UHGV virus genome: UHGV-0127916
DNA length: 14,028 nucleotides
Strand: one strand, 5' to 3'
DNA from: a virus
Shown: in pieces, positions 7,172-14,028 of the stretch
Numbering within the stretch: the stretch's first letter is position 1
Layout: each line of letters opens with the position of its first letter
The notes under the pieces: model-generated
The model's database searches: none
What the model was told of the DNA's origin: nothing
Seen by the model: the letters and a program-made list of their open reading frames with translations, nothing else
Made by a program: the position numbers and the translations under genes

Positions 7172-8443
7172 CTATGGCGTTGTTTTACGCCTTAAATTTG
7201 ATTTTTTATTGATTGATAAGCCTTTCTCTATTTCAGGGTAGCGTAGAAGCTCAATATAGTTTTTAAGCTCTACTGGAGAAGCTGCATTCTTGCTATATGT
7301 GCGGAATGTCTCTGTATTGCCGCGTGTATGGCCCAGGAGAAGGGCGATCCTGTCTTCTGGAATTTGATTTCGATCAAGAAGCTGTGCTACTCCGTGTCTC
7401 AGAGAATGAAACACCTTCCTTTCTGTTCCCTTTTCCCCTAAAGCCTTTCGTTTAGCTCTTGTAAATCTCTGCGTGTGCCACGTGGAACGTTTACCATCAG
7501 CACGCTCTGTAATGCTGGCGTGATAGAACAAAAAGCCATTATGAGGCTTTTCACGAAGAGATAACACCAATGGAGTGATAAGGCTATGCACAGGCACAAG
7601 ACGTGCCGCAGCTTTCGTTTTTCCCTGTGTGATTTCAAAACACAGCACACCTTCGATCTCTTTCACATCGTCTATTGTGAGACTTGCTATCTCATTGATC
7701 CGCATACCTGTATACATTCCGATCAGTGTTATATTTTGCATTTCTTCTTCATCAGCCAGCATTGAGAACACTTTTGCGAGTTCATCATTGCTAAAGGCTT
7801 CATAATTCACCTTGCTACTTTTAGCTTCAAGGCCGTGACCTCGCCAAGGGTTATCTTGTGGTGCATCGTGGTAGCGGTTACGAGCAAGATCCCAAATCTG
7901 GGCTAATGCACTAATGTAGTTTTGTATTGTTTGTGGTGCTTTCTCATTTTTTAGGTTATCTAACCAGCTAGTAACAATAGTTCGGTTAACGTCACGAAGC
8001 TGAACATCGCGTTTATTCAGATGTTCTAAGAGCACCTCTACGGCTTTGTTTGTCTTTGATAGCGTAGTTAGCTTGCGCTTCTCGCTAAACTGGAGAATGT
8101 ACTGATCCCGCATATTTAAAAGAGAAGGGCAGCCAATAGAAGAATCATTAAATGATTCAGATACTTGAAATGCATATGTTCCAGCTTTCCGTAGTTCTGT
8201 AATAATTTGCTCGATCTTCGATGTTTTCTCACGTTGAGGCTTTAGCTTGTTACGTAGTTTTATCCATTCCAGCGCCACCGCATCACGGAACAACCGTGCT
8301 TCTCGAATATCTCTTGTGCCTGTGCTTTTAACGTAGCTACACCGCCCACCAAATAGATGACGCATATACTTAGGTATAGCGATCCTTACCAGATAGTTTC
8401 CGCAAGAATCTGAAATTAAATAACGATCTCTCTTGAAACTCAT
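7172..8443 (-). CDS. int: Tyrosine-type site-specific integrase, 423 aa
   Basis: The C-terminal half shows the tyrosine recombinase catalytic pattern: Arg in TGMRINE, HSLRH (H-x-x-R), LLGHTRGN and the Tyr in FRTYSK. It lies directly beside the tRNA-derived att core. Confidence 0.9.
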   Translation of the reverse strand: MSFKRDRYLISDSCGNYLVRIAIPKYMRHLFGGRCSYVKSTGTRDIREARLFRDAVALEWIKLRNKLKPQREKTSKIEQIITELRKAGTYAFQVSESFNDSSIGCPSLLNMRDQYILQFSEKRKLTTLSKTNKAVEVLLEHLNKRDVQLRDVNRTIVTSWLDNLKNEKAPQTIQNYISALAQIWDLARNRYHDAPQDNPWRGHGLEAKSSKVNYEAFSNDELAKVFSMLADEEEMQNITLIGMYTGMRINEIASLTIDDVKEIEGVLCFEITQGKTKAAARLVPVHSLITPLVLSLREKPHNGFLFYHASITERADGKRSTWHTQRFTRAKRKALGEKGTERKVFHSLRHGVAQLLDRNQIPEDRIALLLGHTRGNTETFRTYSKNAASPVELKNYIELLRYPEIEKGLSINKKSNLRRKTTP

Positions 8444-8831: not shown

Positions 8832-11800
8832 TTATATCTGCCCGCCTACACCTTTAAACTTCTCAATAAACGCGACGATCTTCTGGAAAACCGTCTGTTT
8901 TTTCGTCTTATATTGCGGATTTAACGGACTGAGTTTTGGCAATGTCTCGTTTAATTCCGTGCCATTTTCGGTGGCGTATTCACGTTTTAAAGACGTGCGA
9001 ATATAGCGTTTCGCCGCCTCTTCATTGAGATTTTCTTCTTTGATCAATGCTGCTGCTTCACGTTGCTGTTCACGTTGAGCAAAGGTAAAAAACGCGTCAA
9101 TGATGCTGGCTTTATCCGGCAAATCATCCAGGTTCGTTTGCTGAATAAAATCGACCACCAGACCCTCTTTCGCACGGTTCCCAAGGCTTGAACGAATTAA
9201 GCGTTTGACCTCTTCGGTCATTTCGCCCTTACCTTTGTTTTGTCTGTTGTGTTCGAAAATAAGTCCAAGGATATAATCCAGGTTTATTTCCTGAGACTTC
9301 AGCAAATCGACCTCAAAAACAACGTCATCCCAGTCAGTGGTTGATTTTTCTTTTTTCTCGGCTTCTTTCTCACGGCGCTGCCAGTCACGAATATCGTTAT
9401 AGGCAGAACGATAATCCTGAATCTTGCGAGCAGCAGGGAGACGAATTGTTTGCAATTCAGCGAGCTTTTCATCATCCACATAATGTTCTGCTTTGAATTT
9501 TTCTACCGCAACAGGATCGCTAAGATCGATTTGTTGCAGGGCTTTCAGCGTGGCAAATTCATCATAGTTTTGCAGGATGTTCTCGGCACGCAGGTATTCA
9601 CCAAACAGTTTAACGAAGTCTTTCTTCTCTTTTTCACTTTCAATACTGGCAGGGTCAGGGAACCGTTGTTCCAGTTCTGAAACTACTGTCATAAAGCCGC
9701 GTTTAGCTTCACCGGTGGTAGCATCAGTAAAGCCTTCCATATACTCTGCATAACTCTTTTCTAACACCACATTTTTGGTGTTTTTGTCACCAAACAGCGT
9801 TATGGCATCAATAGTTGAGCGTTCCAGATCCCGAAAAGTGACGATGTTACCGAAGGTTTTCGTAGCGTCATAAATGCGGTTGGTGCGGGAAAATGCCTGC
9901 ATCAGGCCGTGAAAACGCAGGTTTTTATCAACGAATAGCGTGTTCAATGTTGGAGCATCGAATCCGGTTAAAAACATCCCCACAACGATTAACAAGTCAA
10001 CATCCTGATTTTTAACCCGCTGAGCCAGGTCCCGATAGTAGTTCTGAAACCCCTTGCTATCAGTGCTGAAATTCATTTGAAAATGTTCGTTATACTCACG
10101 AATAGCGGCATCCAGAAACTCTTTAGCACTGCTGTCCATTGCACTGGTATCAAAAGTTTCATCGGAAACTTCACCAATGGCATTTTGTTCTTCATTAGCG
10201 GCAAAGGAGAAGATTGTCGCAACACGTAGTGGTTTATAGGTAGCAGATTTATTAGCGGCTTCCTCTTGTAACCGTTTAAACGTCGCGTAATAGGCTTTCG
10301 CGGCATCCACGCTGCTCACTGCCAGCATGGCATTAAAACCTTTGGAGCCGGGGTAAGTACGGTGGGTCTTCTGGCGGAAGTTGTTCAGGATATATTGCGT
10401 GATTTCCTGAATACGCATGGGATGAAGAAACGCCTGCTGATTTTCAGCCGCACTCAGTTTTTTCTCGTCAGTTTCTGTCTCTAAAGACTTAAACTGTGGC
10501 CGCACATCGTTGTAGTCCACCTTGAATTTGAGCACTTTTTCATCACGGATCGCATCGGTAATCACATACGAATGCAATTCACGGCCAAATACGCTGGCAG
10601 TCGTTTCTGAGCCTAAAGCGTTTTCCGGGAAAATAGGGGTACCGGTAAAACCAAACTGATAATAGCGTTTGAATTTCTTCTTCAGGTTTTTCTGCGCTTC
10701 TCCAAACTGGCTGCGGTGGCATTCATCAAATATAAACACCACTTGCTGATTGTATACAGGCAGGTCGCTTTCTGCTTTCATCAGGTTATTAAGTTTCTGA
10801 ATAGTGGTGACGATAATTTTGTTATCGTCCTTATCCAGATTTCGTTTTAGACCTGCGGTATTTTCCGAGCCGTTGACGCTGTCTGGCGAAAAACGCTGAT
10901 ATTCCTTCATGGTCTGGTAATCGAGGTCTTTCCTGTCGACCACAAAGAAAACTTTATCAATAAAGTCCAGTTCTGTTGCCAGCCGCGCGGCTTTAAAGCT
11001 GGTGAGGGTTTTACCAGAACCGGTAGTGTGCCATATAAAGCCACCGCTTTCGGGGTTAGACCAGTTTTTCGCTTTATAGGAGCTGTTGATTTTCCATAAG
11101 ATTCGTTCGGTAGCTGCAATCTGGTACGGTCGCATCACCAGTAGTGTCTGGCTACTGTCAAACACGCTGTAGTTCACCAGAACATTAAGCAGGGTATGTT
11201 TCTGGAAAAAGGTAGCGGTAAAGTCTTTGAGGTCTTTTATCAGCGTGTTGTCTGATTTCGCCCAGTTCATGGTGAAGTCAAAACTGTTTTTATCGCGCTT
11301 TGTGGTGTTGGCAAAATAACGGGTATCTGTGCCGTTAGAAATGACAAACAGTTGCAGATACTTAAACAGGGAATTTTCGCTGTTAAAACTCTCTTTACTG
11401 TAACGATGTATCTGGTTAAAGGCCTCACGAATCGCCACGCCGCGCTTTTTCAGTTCGATTTGTACCAGTGGTAAGCCATTAACCAGGATCGTGACGTCAT
11501 AACGGTTAGCATGAGAACCCGCCTGTTCAAACTGCTGGATAATCTGCACCTTATTGCGCATGAGATTCTTTTTATCTATCAGATAGATGTTCTCAAGACG
11601 CTCGTCATCAAAAATAAAGTCGCAAATATAGTCGATATGGATTTTACGGGTCTTATCCAGAATGCCATCGCTCGGGTTATCCAGATACTGCTCCGTGAAA
11701 CGCCGCCACTCGCTGTCATTAAACACCACACCATTGAGGCTCTGAAGCTGTTCCCGAACGTTGGCCAGCATCGCTGACTGTGATTTTACGGGTATAAATT

Positions 11801-11948
11801 CATAGCCCTGATTTTGCAGGTCCTGAATCAGTTCACGTTCCAGGTCCGATTCGCTCTGGTAGCTGTCGCCTGTTGGCTCAGCTTTGATGTACTTATCAAG
11901 AACGATAAAGTTATTGGATTCAGCAATGGTGTGTGTCTGATGAGTCAT
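8832..11948 (-). CDS. hsdR: Type I restriction enzyme R subunit (HsdR), 1038 aa; type IC/EcoR124-like by recollection
   Basis: PD-(D/E)xK nuclease motif (D...VQIELKK), helicase motif I TTGSGKT and motif II FIFDECH. The length and the N-terminus [14 protein letters not shown] match my recollection of EcoR124I HsdR. RBS AAGGA precedes the ATG. Confidence 0.95.
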
Positions 11949-12069: not shown

Positions 12070-12594
12070 TTAATTACTGACAGTTTCAGGTTTCGGGAAA
12101 CTGAACAGTAAATCACGGTAGTATTCGTATTGTTTCTGGCGCAACTCGATTTCACGCGGAAGACCTTCAGTGATGGAGTTGGTCAGGGTGTCGAATTTAT
12201 CGAGTATTTCGACAATGCGAGCTTGCCAGGTGAGTGGCGGTACAGGGATTGGGTATTTCATTATATCCTCTTTACTGCCACGCGGCATTTTTGCTCCTTT
12301 AGCATGCTGCATGTTGTATTCAAAGAATTTGTCATCTGCCAAAATCTGATATAGATATCTGGTATTTATTGAGCTATCTATGCAACGAATAACCAATACA
12401 TCGCCATTTGTTCCACCGATACAATCTGCTTGCCAAATTTTTTTCAAATATGGGCGGATATTCCCAATCAATATATCGTTAGGTATAAACTCCGTTAATT
12501 TACCTGATGTCGGTACATGATTAGATAATGATTTTCCTGCTCTGTTTTGCAGCAGATTATCTACGCCAACATAGATGATATGACCTTTATATAC
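12070..12594 (-). pseudogene. hsdS: Truncated hsdS: C-terminal ~174 codons (TRD2 plus conserved C-terminal helix) of a type I specificity subunit
   Basis: The frame is open from 12594 down to the stop at 12070-12072. The translation ...NDILIGNIRPYLKKIW...YPIPVPPLTWQARIVEILDKF...LRQKQYEYYRDLLFSF carries HsdS target-recognition-domain and C-terminal motifs. The N-terminal half is missing; the frame hits a stop at 12595-12597 inside the IS-proximal sequence. The ORF-track start at 12471 is a TTG. Confidence 0.75.
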
Positions 12595-14024
12595 TCACTA
12601 TAGCATTGGTGGGATATTCCAGAGGAGGTCATCATGCATTCGGAAAATATTGCGGCTTACGTCGGGCTGGATGTGCATAAAGAAACGTTGGCGGTTGCTA
12701 TTGCTGCACCTGAACGGCTTGGCGAAGTTCGTTATTATGGTACGATTAACAACGAAGCCCAGGCTGTACGTCGATTATTTCAGAAATTGCAGGGACTTTA
12801 CGGAAACATTCTTTCCTGCTATGAGGCTGGCCCCTGTGGTTTTGGGCTATATCATCAACTCACAGCGATGAATATAAAATGCCAGGTTATTGCCCCTTCC
12901 CGCATACCAAAATCACCGACAGACAGAATCAAAAATGATCATCGGGACGCAATTTCTCTCGCCAGGTTACTGCGGGCTGGAGAACTTACCCCTGTCTGGA
13001 TCCCTGACCTGACTCATGAAGCTATGCGGGATCTAATCAGAGCCCGTGCAGCAGCTAAACGAGACAGCAGAGTTGCCCGACAGCGAATTCTGAGCATGCT
13101 ATTGCGAACAGACAAACATTATGCAGGAAAGCACTGGACAGGAAAACATCGAACCTGGTTAGCTAATCAATCATTTAGTCAGCCATCTCAACAGATTGCT
13201 TTTCAACACTATTGTCAAAGTCTGGAGCAGATTGAAGATCGCATACTTCAACTCGACCAGGAAATATCTCGCCTGTTACCTGAGTGGTCTCTGTGCAATC
13301 TGGTCTGCCAGTTGCAGGCTCTTAAAGGTGTTGGTCAGCTAATTGCAATAACTCTGGTTGCTGAACTGGGTGATTTTTCGCGATTTTCCAATCCCAAACA
13401 GCTCATGGCTTTTCTGGGACTGGTGCCAGGTGAATATTCCAGTGGAAACAGTATTCGTCCCAGAGGAATAACAAAAGTTGGAAACAGCGAACTGAGACGT
13501 CTGCTTTACGAAGCCGCCTGGTCTTATCGTACACCTGCAAAAGTTGGGGCATGGCTTATATATTACCGACCGGACTCTGTAACACAATATTCCAAAGATA
13601 TTGCATGGAAAGCTCAACAACGATTGTGTTCTCGTTACCGAAGTCTGACAGCAAAAGGGAAAAAATCACAAGTAGCCATTACGGCGGTGGCTCGTGAGTT
13701 GACTGGATTTATGTGGGATATTGCACTTGCTGCCCAATCATCATTCAGTCAGCAGAAGCAAAATTAAACCCTGAAGCAGTCAGACACGGAATGAGTGATC
13801 CTCGTAAAAGAATTCAGGGAAGCCAGAATGCGCTAATACCTGCACGTAGAAAGAGGCCAGCTCACTGCGTAAATCGTCATGGGGCTAAAATCCCCGAATA
13901 AGAGTTTGTAAAATCCAAGATACAGTCTGACTGTTTCAGGTTCTTTAATCCGCGATATAACGAAGCTCCCGGAGCTGCGTAAGGTCTTTTTGGGCTTAAT
14001 ATTTGACAAAGGTCATAAGAATTC
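12572..14024 (+). mobile_element. IS110-family insertion sequence (IS1111-like layout); boundaries approximate
   Basis: Contains the DEDD transposase gene. A 10-bp inverted repeat TATGACCTTT (12579-12588) / AAAGGTCATA (14008-14017) brackets it. It has a short 5' end and a non-coding 3' end of at least 240 bp, and it interrupts hsdS. Confidence 0.6.
12634..13767 (+). CDS. IS110-family transposase/recombinase (DEDD RuvC-like N-domain plus C-terminal Tnp domain), 377 aa
   Basis: N-terminus YVGLDVHKETLAVAI and C-terminal LKGVGQLIAITLVAELGDFSRFSNPKQLMAFLGLVPGEYSSGNSIRPRGITKVGNSELRRLLYEAAW are hallmark IS110-family segments. GAGGAGG RBS lies 5 nt before the ATG. Confidence 0.95.
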   Translation: MHSENIAAYVGLDVHKETLAVAIAAPERLGEVRYYGTINNEAQAVRRLFQKLQGLYGNILSCYEAGPCGFGLYHQLTAMNIKCQVIAPSRIPKSPTDRIKNDHRDAISLARLLRAGELTPVWIPDLTHEAMRDLIRARAAAKRDSRVARQRILSMLLRTDKHYAGKHWTGKHRTWLANQSFSQPSQQIAFQHYCQSLEQIEDRILQLDQEISRLLPEWSLCNLVCQLQALKGVGQLIAITLVAELGDFSRFSNPKQLMAFLGLVPGEYSSGNSIRPRGITKVGNSELRRLLYEAAWSYRTPAKVGAWLIYYRPDSVTQYSKDIAWKAQQRLCSRYRSLTAKGKKSQVAITAVARELTGFMWDIALAAQSSFSQQKQN

Positions 14025-14028
14025 TTTT

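Follow-up and report, generated by a model that had tools for sequence, protein, structure and literature searches.

A predicted two-module guide RNA in the right end of the insertion sequence ISEc45

We analyzed a 14,028-nucleotide stretch of DNA from a virus, UHGV virus genome UHGV-0127916 (the window; all coordinates are positions in it), which carries near its end the insertion sequence ISEc45, a member of the IS1111 group of the IS110 family. Positions 13770-13940, just downstream of the element's transposase gene (tnp), very probably encode the guide RNA of ISEc45 (a bridge RNA, or 'long seekRNA'), judging from a conserved fold of 171 nucleotides (nt) and from loop segments that change together with the insertion flanks and the ends of each element. 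The existence of this RNA is not new, because Durrant et al. 2024 list ISEc45 with a right-end bridge RNA ('ISEc45 RE IS1111' in their Supplementary Table 5; PMC11208160); the RNA is of a known and ordinary kind and had been predicted before. Its structure, the map of its guides and its target are additional detail beyond the published listing. A preliminary description of the window had proposed an IS1111-type guide RNA downstream of the recombinase gene, a proposal that the fold, found in 77 of 80 relatives, and the covariation of its guides now support. The parts of the predicted RNA are the following.

13770-13940, + strand: predicted bridge/seek RNA, 171 nt, from the first to the last base of helix P1 (full-length match to covariance model R1, 158 bits, E 1.6e-36)
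13770-13785, + strand: 5' strand of P1, CCUGAAGCAGUCAGAC, pairing with 13925-13940 in a closing stem of 16 base pairs (bp)
13792-13796 with 13860-13864, + strand: P2 (5' strand UGAGU), which with P3 closes the target loop
13800-13803 with 13853-13856, + strand: P3 (5' strand CCUC), which with P2 closes the target loop
13804-13814, + strand: 5' strand of the target loop, GUAAAAGAAUU
13806-13814, + strand: 5' target guide, AAAAGAAUU, complementary to top-strand AATTCTTTT, the right target half (14020-14028)
13815-13842, + strand: P4, a hairpin of eight pairs that splits the target loop, between the two target guides
13843-13850, + strand: 3' target guide, CACGUAGA, equal in sense to the top strand across the left flank and into the first left-end bases, with predicted pairing to the bottom strand
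13843-13852, + strand: 3' strand of the target loop, CACGUAGAAA
13870-13879, + strand: 5' flank of P5, UAAAUCGUCA
13873-13878, + strand: 5' donor guide, AUCGUC, complementary to the left-end top strand GATGAT with one G.T wobble
13880-13884 with 13892-13896, + strand: P5, the hairpin UGGGG-CUAAAAU-CCCCG, in the multiloop closed by P1 and between the donor guides
13897-13909, + strand: 3' flank of P5, AAUAAGAGUUUGU
13898-13906, + strand: 3' donor guide, AUAAGAG(UU), of the same sense as right-end ATAAGA plus G, with predicted pairing to the bottom strand
13925-13940, + strand: 3' strand of P1, GUCUGACUGUUUCAGG, pairing with 13770-13785

The RNA begins with P1, 3 nt past the stop codon of tnp. 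The whole non-coding end is more stable than shuffled sequences (z -2.47), and in its minimum-energy fold 13770-13785 pairs with 13925-13940 over 16 bp. Conservation was assessed in 80 loci from other species, with recombinases 48-77% identical to that of ISEc45. Across the five closest relatives (from Sodalis, Klebsiella, two Vibrio and Nitrosomonas) the non-coding end is alignable throughout, and the outer stem shifts in sequence while its pairing is kept (for example, CCCTGAAGCGCGCCGGGC with GCCCGGTCGCTTCAGG). When 14 relatives were folded singly by minimum energy, each gave an RNA of 163-173 nt whose two ends join in a long terminal stem, P1. RNAalifold on a MAFFT alignment not fitted to any structure recovered P2, P3 and P5 with compensatory pairs (for example, UGAGU/GCUCA becoming GAAGG/CCUUC), and only these, P1 and P4 being variable in length; because this variation limited the plain alignment, the covariance model R1 (seven sequences, 170 positions, 40 pairs) was built from seven close relatives. 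R1 finds one full-length match in the window, at 13770-13940, and a single match in 77 of the 80 relatives; each of these lies downstream of tnp, on the strand of the recombinase gene, and starts no more than about 110 nt after the stop. There were no further matches in the 289 kilobases searched.

On the R1 alignment, 91.3% of pair cells hold standard pairs, as against 36-43% when the partners are slid by one to three columns, 38 of the 40 pairs have changed on both sides, and 623 cells are compensatory, as against 64-145 in the slid controls (pair counts that are inflated toward the structure, because this alignment was fitted to the model's own structure); shuffles matching any observed structure measure numbered 0 of 500. 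The unfitted evidence, namely the MAFFT/RNAalifold run and the single-sequence folds, agrees with the R1 structure. All 15 modelled pairs of P1 show compensatory changes, with 92% of cells paired; P4 varies in sequence and keeps its structure (compensatory changes in 8 of 8 pairs, 91% paired); and P5 is paired in 97.7% of cells over 70 distinct sequences, with GC to CG swaps in 19 of them. G.U and U.G pairs outnumber A.C and C.A pairs by 193 to 74, an excess that points to the + strand as the RNA. These patterns indicate that the 171-nt structure is conserved under selection on the RNA fold. We give virtually no credence to the idea that the region is an AT-rich leftover with incidental hairpins: a second hairpin and a linker that lie beyond the RNA do fold no better than shuffles, as such a leftover would, but the score of 158 bits here, the full-length matches in 77 relatives down to 48% protein identity, the stability of the fold and the covariation of its pairs refute it. 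Two minor candidates in the region were set aside, a 10-nt similarity between 12081-12090 and part of P1 (13931-13940), judged to be chance, and a 62-amino-acid (aa) open reading frame with a GTG start at 13713-13901, which overlaps the end of tnp and the RNA and is probably a mechanical call.

The guides are read against the limits of the element and against its insertion site, which lies in hsdS, the specificity-subunit gene of a type I restriction-modification system.

12567-12573, + strand: left target half in hsdS, CAACATA, with its bottom strand predicted to pair with the 3' target guide (from the empty-site comparison)
12574-14020, + strand: ISEc45 insertion sequence (IS110 family, IS1111 group), 1447 bp (from RefSeq naming, the empty site and 10 other intact copies)
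12574-12579, + strand: left-end terminus GATGAT, the right donor half on the circle and predicted partner of RNA positions 13873-13878
14021-14028, + strand: hsdS flank and right target half, ATTCTTTT, outside the element (from the empty site in locus L005 and the continuation in locus L001)

These limits come from an uninterrupted hsdS allele (L005), which reads CAACATAATTCTTTTCATC, and from the 10 other intact copies, all of 1447 bp. In the occupied site the left junction is CAACATA|GATGATATGACC and the right junction GGTCATAAGA|ATTCTTTTCATC (with the bar at the joint); comparison of the empty with the occupied site reveals no target duplication and places the boundary to within 1 nt (an 'A'). 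The right end therefore lies at 14020 and not directly after the transposase stop, the arrangement that the preliminary description had named as incompatible with a downstream guide. Its two distance estimates were also borne out, with 253 bp of non-coding DNA inside the element after tnp (at least 240 bp had been expected) and, by the empty-site comparison, 60 bp between the left boundary and the transposase start (40-60 bp had been expected).

A match of the guide loops to the hsdS site and to the element ends had been suggested as a check, and it was found for both target flanks and both ends (GATGAT and ATAAGA). The 5' target guide forms Watson-Crick pairs with the right flank at 9 of 9 positions. 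The 3' target guide is identical to the commonest left junction of ISEc45, CACGTA|GA in the tnpC gene of IS66-family elements, and forms five proximal pairs, including one G.T wobble, with ACATA|GA in hsdS. By these matches, the target loop is predicted to read the two target halves with one segment each, on opposite strands. Among the relatives the 3' target strand tracks the left junction, CAACCAGA, CAGCCAGA, AGGUAGAU and UCCUAGACC each being identical to the junction of their own element, and the 5' strand changes with the right flank (for example, UCACCAC occurs with GTGGTGA). Within E. coli, variants of 97% identity differ at 7 positions (8 in L097) of the 256 bp from 13765 to the right end; four of these fall in P4, and two fall in the 3' target guide, where CG at 13845-13846 becomes TA. 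Two such variants (L097 and L098, from E. coli STEC17-183 and LZYWN_4) have their P4 and guide changes at positions equivalent to 13817-13846 and an altered fifth left-end base (GATGGT); both lie in IS66 tnpC sites with CATGTA or CATAAA flanks and represent natural guide variants in E. coli.

The second module is predicted to read the element itself. Its 3' guide contains AUAAGAG (13898-13904), which equals the right-end terminus ATAAGA plus the first left-end base on the circle. Both of its strands switch with the ends of the relatives: the 5' strand reads ACCAUC where the left end is GATGGT and GGUC where it is GACC, and the 3' strand reads AUAGGAG with ATAGGA, CAUCGGAG with CATCGGA, CAUGAGAG with CATGAGA and CAUCAGAG with CATCAGA. 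This module thus appears complementary to both element ends; we rank it the weaker of the two because its guides are short.

Covariation of the four guide segments was evaluated in 41 elements with definable ends, by comparing the fit of each segment to its cognate partner with its fit to permuted partners (2000 permutations). The ends of the relatives were located by a mismatch-tolerant search for inverted repeats restricted to the region after the RNA (exact-match ends, which were spurious for some distant relatives, were replaced, and loci without a clear repeat were excluded from the guide tests). Each segment fits its own flank or end better than permuted ones, with mean fits, cognate versus non-cognate, of 5.9 versus 4.3 for the 5' target guide, 4.3 versus 3.7 for the 5' donor guide, and 5.0 versus 4.0 and 6.2 versus 5.7 for the two 3' guides. 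The observed values were reached in 0 of 2000 permutations, a count that is not a probability, since the relatives share descent and their boundaries were set by analogy (at a fixed offset from the inverted repeat) instead of by empty sites; for these two reasons we take the covariation as strong support to which no probability is attached.

The junctions of most relatives read ..A|GA.. on the left and ..AGA|G.. on the right, which fits a shared AG core in donor and target. At most ISEc45 sites the right junction is AGA|A, so that the target core is AA and the G of the guide must wobble; one IS66 site with an AG core is present (L087/L098). The two bases past the core match the left end at 55 of 76 positions and the right flank at 4 of 76 for the 3' target strand, and match the right flank at 36 of 76 and the left end at 10 of 76 for the 3' donor strand. 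From this pattern we infer a resemblance to the handshake dinucleotides described for IS621 (Hiraizumi et al. 2026, PMC13626964), part of the signal being an invariant A.

The same data bear on a narrower model, which we consider improbable, in which the target module alone guides (a 'short seekRNA' of roughly 75 nt, at approximately 13792-13864) and P1, P5 and the apparent donor guides are scaffold or processing signals. This module would then recognize target-derived flanks at the new site as well as next to the donor, which is what Siddiquee et al. proposed for ISEc11. P1 and P5 are conserved and covary as strongly as the target module, which speaks against this model, and the flanks of P5 covary with the ends in several independent switches (ATAAGA, ATAGGA, CATCGGA, CATGAGA and CATCAGA on one side; GATGAT, GATGGT and GACC on the other). 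Donor-binding nucleotides in a multiloop, moreover, have been described for IS1111 elements (Durrant et al. 2024, PMC11208160). Speaking for the narrower model are the results on ISEc11, in which an 82-nt RNA was sufficient and outperformed a 154-nt form and the donor flanks had to match the target (PMC11187229), together with the 2-4 nt by which the 3' target guide reaches into the left end, the shortness of the donor guides, and the better match of the post-crossover bases of the 3' guides to the integrated junctions than to the circle or the empty site (the counts out of 76 above). Since P1, P5 and the donor segments are conserved and also covary, we favor an active RNA of the full 171 nt with both modules.

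Neither a regulatory role nor a set of protein sites would predict loops that change along with the insertion flanks of each element. This is one difficulty for the view that the conserved 3' region is a stability or regulatory element in the 3' untranslated region of tnp mRNA, or a set of recombinase-bound DNA sites, with no part in DNA targeting. The region does adjoin the recombination site and holds the right-end inverted repeat and a -35 hexamer, as that view would have it; the compensatory pairs and the excess of G.U over A.C nonetheless point to an RNA fold and not to duplex DNA, and there is no terminator-like site, so that we regard the view as very improbable.

Comparison with characterized members of the family places the predicted RNA among known guides. 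In ISEc11, ISPa11 and ISKpn4 the downstream non-coding RNA co-purifies with the transposase, is essential and can be reprogrammed (Siddiquee et al. 2024, PMC11187229), and the segment matching the top strand lies 5' of that matching the bottom strand (PMC11187229). ISEc45 resembles these elements in having its predicted RNA in a long region downstream of a DEDD transposase, in its sub-terminal repeats, in the lack of target duplication and, by the geometry read from its sequence, in having a promoter candidate only at the circle junction. The layout of the ISEc11 RNA (read from the ISEc11 DNA, L096 1717-1778) follows the same order as that of ISEc45: inside a closing stem (GACUCAC/GUGAGUC), the antisense guide CAGUAUUUU comes first, then a hairpin and then the sense guide GUGAAAAUA, and the target is GTGAAAATACTG (target from PMC11187229). 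The ISEc45 transposase differs in being only approximately 20% identical and longer (377 versus 339 aa), and the target is different.

To the bridge RNA of IS621 (PMC11208160, PMC13626964) the predicted RNA is similar in size and in having target and donor modules, in each of which a pair of guide segments, one per strand, reads the DNA to the two sides of a short crossover core, and in ISEc45, as with the handshake guides of IS621, the 3'-guide bases past the core match the post-exchange partner. It differs in lying in the right end where that of IS621 lies in the left, in the order of the top- and bottom-strand segments (reversed between the two families, according to PMC11187229), in a core that is probably A(G/A) where that of IS621 is CT, in the long sub-terminal repeats of ISEc45, and in donor guides placed in a multiloop around a hairpin and not in a simple internal loop. 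The last feature fits the remark of Durrant et al. 2024 that the donor-binding nucleotides of IS1111 bridge RNAs lie in a multiloop (PMC11208160; Fig. 6, Extended Data Fig. 10), as the ISEc45 donor segments do around P5; the same authors predicted bridge RNAs in 93% of IS1111 elements (PMC11208160).

Several points weigh against a guide RNA at 13770-13940, in addition to the inflated pair counts, the shared descent of the relatives and their boundaries set by analogy. The proposed scan with covariance models brought up no relevant family from Rfam 15 (none at the gathering threshold, and at E <= 10 only two unrelated chance matches), the match in the window and in 77 of the 80 relatives coming from our own model, R1. 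Run on the ISEc11 locus with filters off, R1 gave a best E of 0.86, inside tnp, and did not detect the validated RNA; because R1 misses that RNA and the proteins are only approximately 20% identical, the likeness to a validated guide is one of layout and defining features, not of score. The donor guides are short (4-8 nt), and the 5' one gains little from its cognate partner (4.3 versus 3.7). At ISEc45 sites the crossover AA faces AG in the guide, and one G.T wobble is needed. The -10 candidate of the junction promoter, TATGAC, lacks the conserved final T. Finally, the ISEc45 RNA is a prediction, as are its ends, which are taken to be those of P1.

The remaining features of the element are those from which the proposed expression and mobility of the RNA are read.

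12579-12584, + strand: TATGAC, -10-like hexamer within the left inverted repeat
12579-12588, + strand: left sub-terminal inverted repeat, TATGACCTTT, 10 bp, 5 nt inside the left end, containing the -10-like TATGAC
12634-13767, + strand: tnp, gene for a DEDD recombinase/transposase of 377 aa (from Pfam domains and thousands of homologues)
13941-14002, + strand: linker from the RNA to the right-end promoter half, 62 nt, holding the second hairpin (13960-13980); not conserved
14003-14008, + strand: TTGACA, -35 half of a putative circle-junction promoter (on the circle: TTGACA, 17 nt, TATGAC)
14008-14017, + strand: right sub-terminal inverted repeat, AAAGGTCATA, 10 bp, 3 nt inside the right end

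A scan of 12500-14028 on the linear element predicted no sigma-70-like promoter and no intrinsic terminator, and led us to reject an internal promoter or terminator as a reading of the hairpins. The preliminary description had placed TTGACA where a junction promoter would form on circularization, and the geometry agrees: on the circle it stands 17 nt from TATGAC of the left end. Of 46 relatives with placeable ends, most have a TTGACA-like hexamer at the same right-end offset, and in most a spacing of 16-18 bp to a (T/C)ATGA(C/T)-type hexamer in the left repeat recurs. Junction promoters have been reported for ISEc11 and other family members (PMC11187229), and for ISEc11 no other promoter was seen and the guide was concluded to be processed from a longer transcript (PMC11187229); by analogy, the ISEc45 RNA would be processed from a longer transcript of its junction promoter.

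In the mechanism that we propose, by analogy with ISEc11 and IS621 for transcription, processing, protein binding and strand exchange, the element would excise as a circle, joining TTGACA of the right end to TATGAC of the left end at a 17-bp spacing, and the resulting junction promoter would drive tnp and the co-transcribed RNA, which would then be trimmed out of the transcript. In the target module the 5' strand, AAAAGAAUU, would pair with the top strand of the right half, and the 3' strand, CACGUAGA, with the bottom strand of the left half and the crossover; in the donor module, the multiloop around P5, AUCGUC would pair with the left-end top strand and AUAAGAG with the right-end bottom strand (ATAAGA|G). 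Recombinase dimers on both modules would bring the circle junction and a matching target together, and strands would be exchanged at the A(G/A) crossover, with no target duplication.

Three motifs had drawn attention to this end of the element, GGGG/CTAAAAT/CCCC (13881-13895), AGCTC/CCG/GAGCT (13964-13976) and TTGACA (14003-14008), and all are present; of the two hairpins, put forward as parts of a structured RNA, the first is the conserved helix P5, and the second lies outside the RNA and is not conserved. The linker that holds it is not alignable among the relatives and has no excess stability (z -0.57 for the fold in the window, mean z -0.39 across 48 relatives), and we excluded the second hairpin from the RNA on account of its place outside the conserved fold and its shuffle-like stability. 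The guide region of the preliminary description, 13768-14028, accordingly stands for 13770-13940 and falls for the remainder, which includes the 62-nt linker and the last 8 nt, which are hsdS.

The assignment of the element to the IS1111 group follows from its domains, its sub-terminal repeats, its 253-bp 3' end and the lack of target duplication. The recombinase has a DEDD (RuvC-like) N-terminal domain (PF01548, 8.4e-16) and a Transposase_20 C-terminal domain (PF02371, 6.7e-24; both from Pfam) with a GL-P----S(T)G motif, of which G262, P265, S270 and G271 are invariant in the alignment of relatives. Hallmarks of IS1111 elements are sub-terminal inverted repeats of 7-17 bp near each end and a long downstream non-coding region (PMC11187229, PMC11208160); ISEc45 has 10-bp repeats a few bases inside each end, and non-coding ends of 60 bp before tnp and 253 bp after it, the IS1111-type layout. 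Identical copies of tnp in RefSeq are named 'IS110-like element ISEc45 family transposase'. Among 5426 complete E. coli genomes, 1509 are matched by a query including tnp and 646 (approximately 12%) by the 3' non-coding end on its own, which occurs in them at 925 places, nearly all at 95% identity or above; carriers of ISEc45 include CFT073, Nissle 1917 and NC101. At one place (NZ_CP028320.1 4379047-4379419, near yqhC) the 256-bp right end is matched in two pieces over 373 bp, which could be an insertion or duplication within the non-coding end. Draft contigs of ten relatives (L016, L025, L035, L037, L041, L043, L057, L067, L077 and L078) end 280-340 nt past the tnp stop, which coincides with the right end of the element; the window stops 8 nt beyond its own right end and may likewise end at a repeat-induced assembly break.

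Six different flanks among 11 copies of ISEc45 share the pattern ..ACA(C/T)(G/A)(T/A)A | (A/G)TT(C/T)TT... Most copies (E. coli L003, L086 and L088-L095) sit in tnpC of IS66-family elements, as do the closest relatives in other genera (L006, L008, L013 and L018), and the insertion point falls in the codons of the conserved motif G(R/K)KN(W/Y)(L/V)F, the target GAACAGCCA|GTTCTT being the reverse complement of AAG AAC TGG CTG TTC (K N W L F). The domain DDE_Tnp_IS66 was confirmed by Pfam across the rejoined flanks in Sodalis, Vibrio, Sphingomonas and an alphaproteobacterial metagenome-assembled genome; the Klebsiella and Nitrosomonas relatives are probably also in IS66 tnpC, since their flanks look homologous. 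A sister lineage (L042) with different target guides, GUUUCCAGA and GGGAAACAUU, sits in a transposase gene of the Mutator/IS256 family (PF00872, 3e-41), and L073 probably belongs to the same lineage; within the clade, guides seem to be redirected from the transposase genes of one insertion-sequence family to those of another. Six alphaproteobacterial relatives (L071, L074, L081, L082, L058 and L065), each in a different genome, have GTGGAxCGAxTCTAAC as a common right flank, and their target may thus be a repeated sequence of some kind. ISEc21, also of the IS110 family, has as its target conserved DDE codons in the transposase genes of IS3-family elements (PMC11187229); ISEc45 is like it in having a guide tuned to a conserved coding motif of another insertion-sequence family, and differs in its victim, IS66 instead of IS3, in its recombinase subgroup and in the position of its RNA. 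We lean slightly toward the view that guide RNAs in the ISEc45 clade have adapted, in their evolution, to conserved codons in the transposase genes of other insertion sequences.

At the insertion site in the window, hsdS encodes ..E K N Y V G.. on its own strand and resembles the motif KNYVF of E. coli IS66; because its KNYV mimics this motif, we take the hsdS insertion to be at a look-alike site. The element splits hsdS (window 12070-12573 and 14021-14028; L001 4522-5244), hsdR lies at 8832-11948 and hsdM just beyond the window, and the specificity subunit of this type I system is probably lost. Next to the restriction-modification genes, at 7172-8443, is a gene for a tyrosine integrase (Phage_integrase, DUF6538), a sign that the entire region may be a genomic island.

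To our knowledge, few IS1111-type guides have been dissected so far. Programmable tools for genome insertion are being developed from RNA-guided recombinases of the IS110/IS1111 type. A map of the ISEc45 guide at the level of single bases, which covers its closing stem, the loop for the target, the multiloop for the donor and the crossover and has comparative support, should be useful for annotation and for reprogramming design. The map also accounts for the presence of ISEc45 in hsdS here and in IS66 tnpC elsewhere. If the guides of this clade did evolve to read the transposase genes of other insertion sequences, the clade would be using rival mobile elements as renewable safe harbours, and the insertion into hsdS would be a wobble-tolerated off-target event that knocked out the specificity subunit of a type I restriction system.

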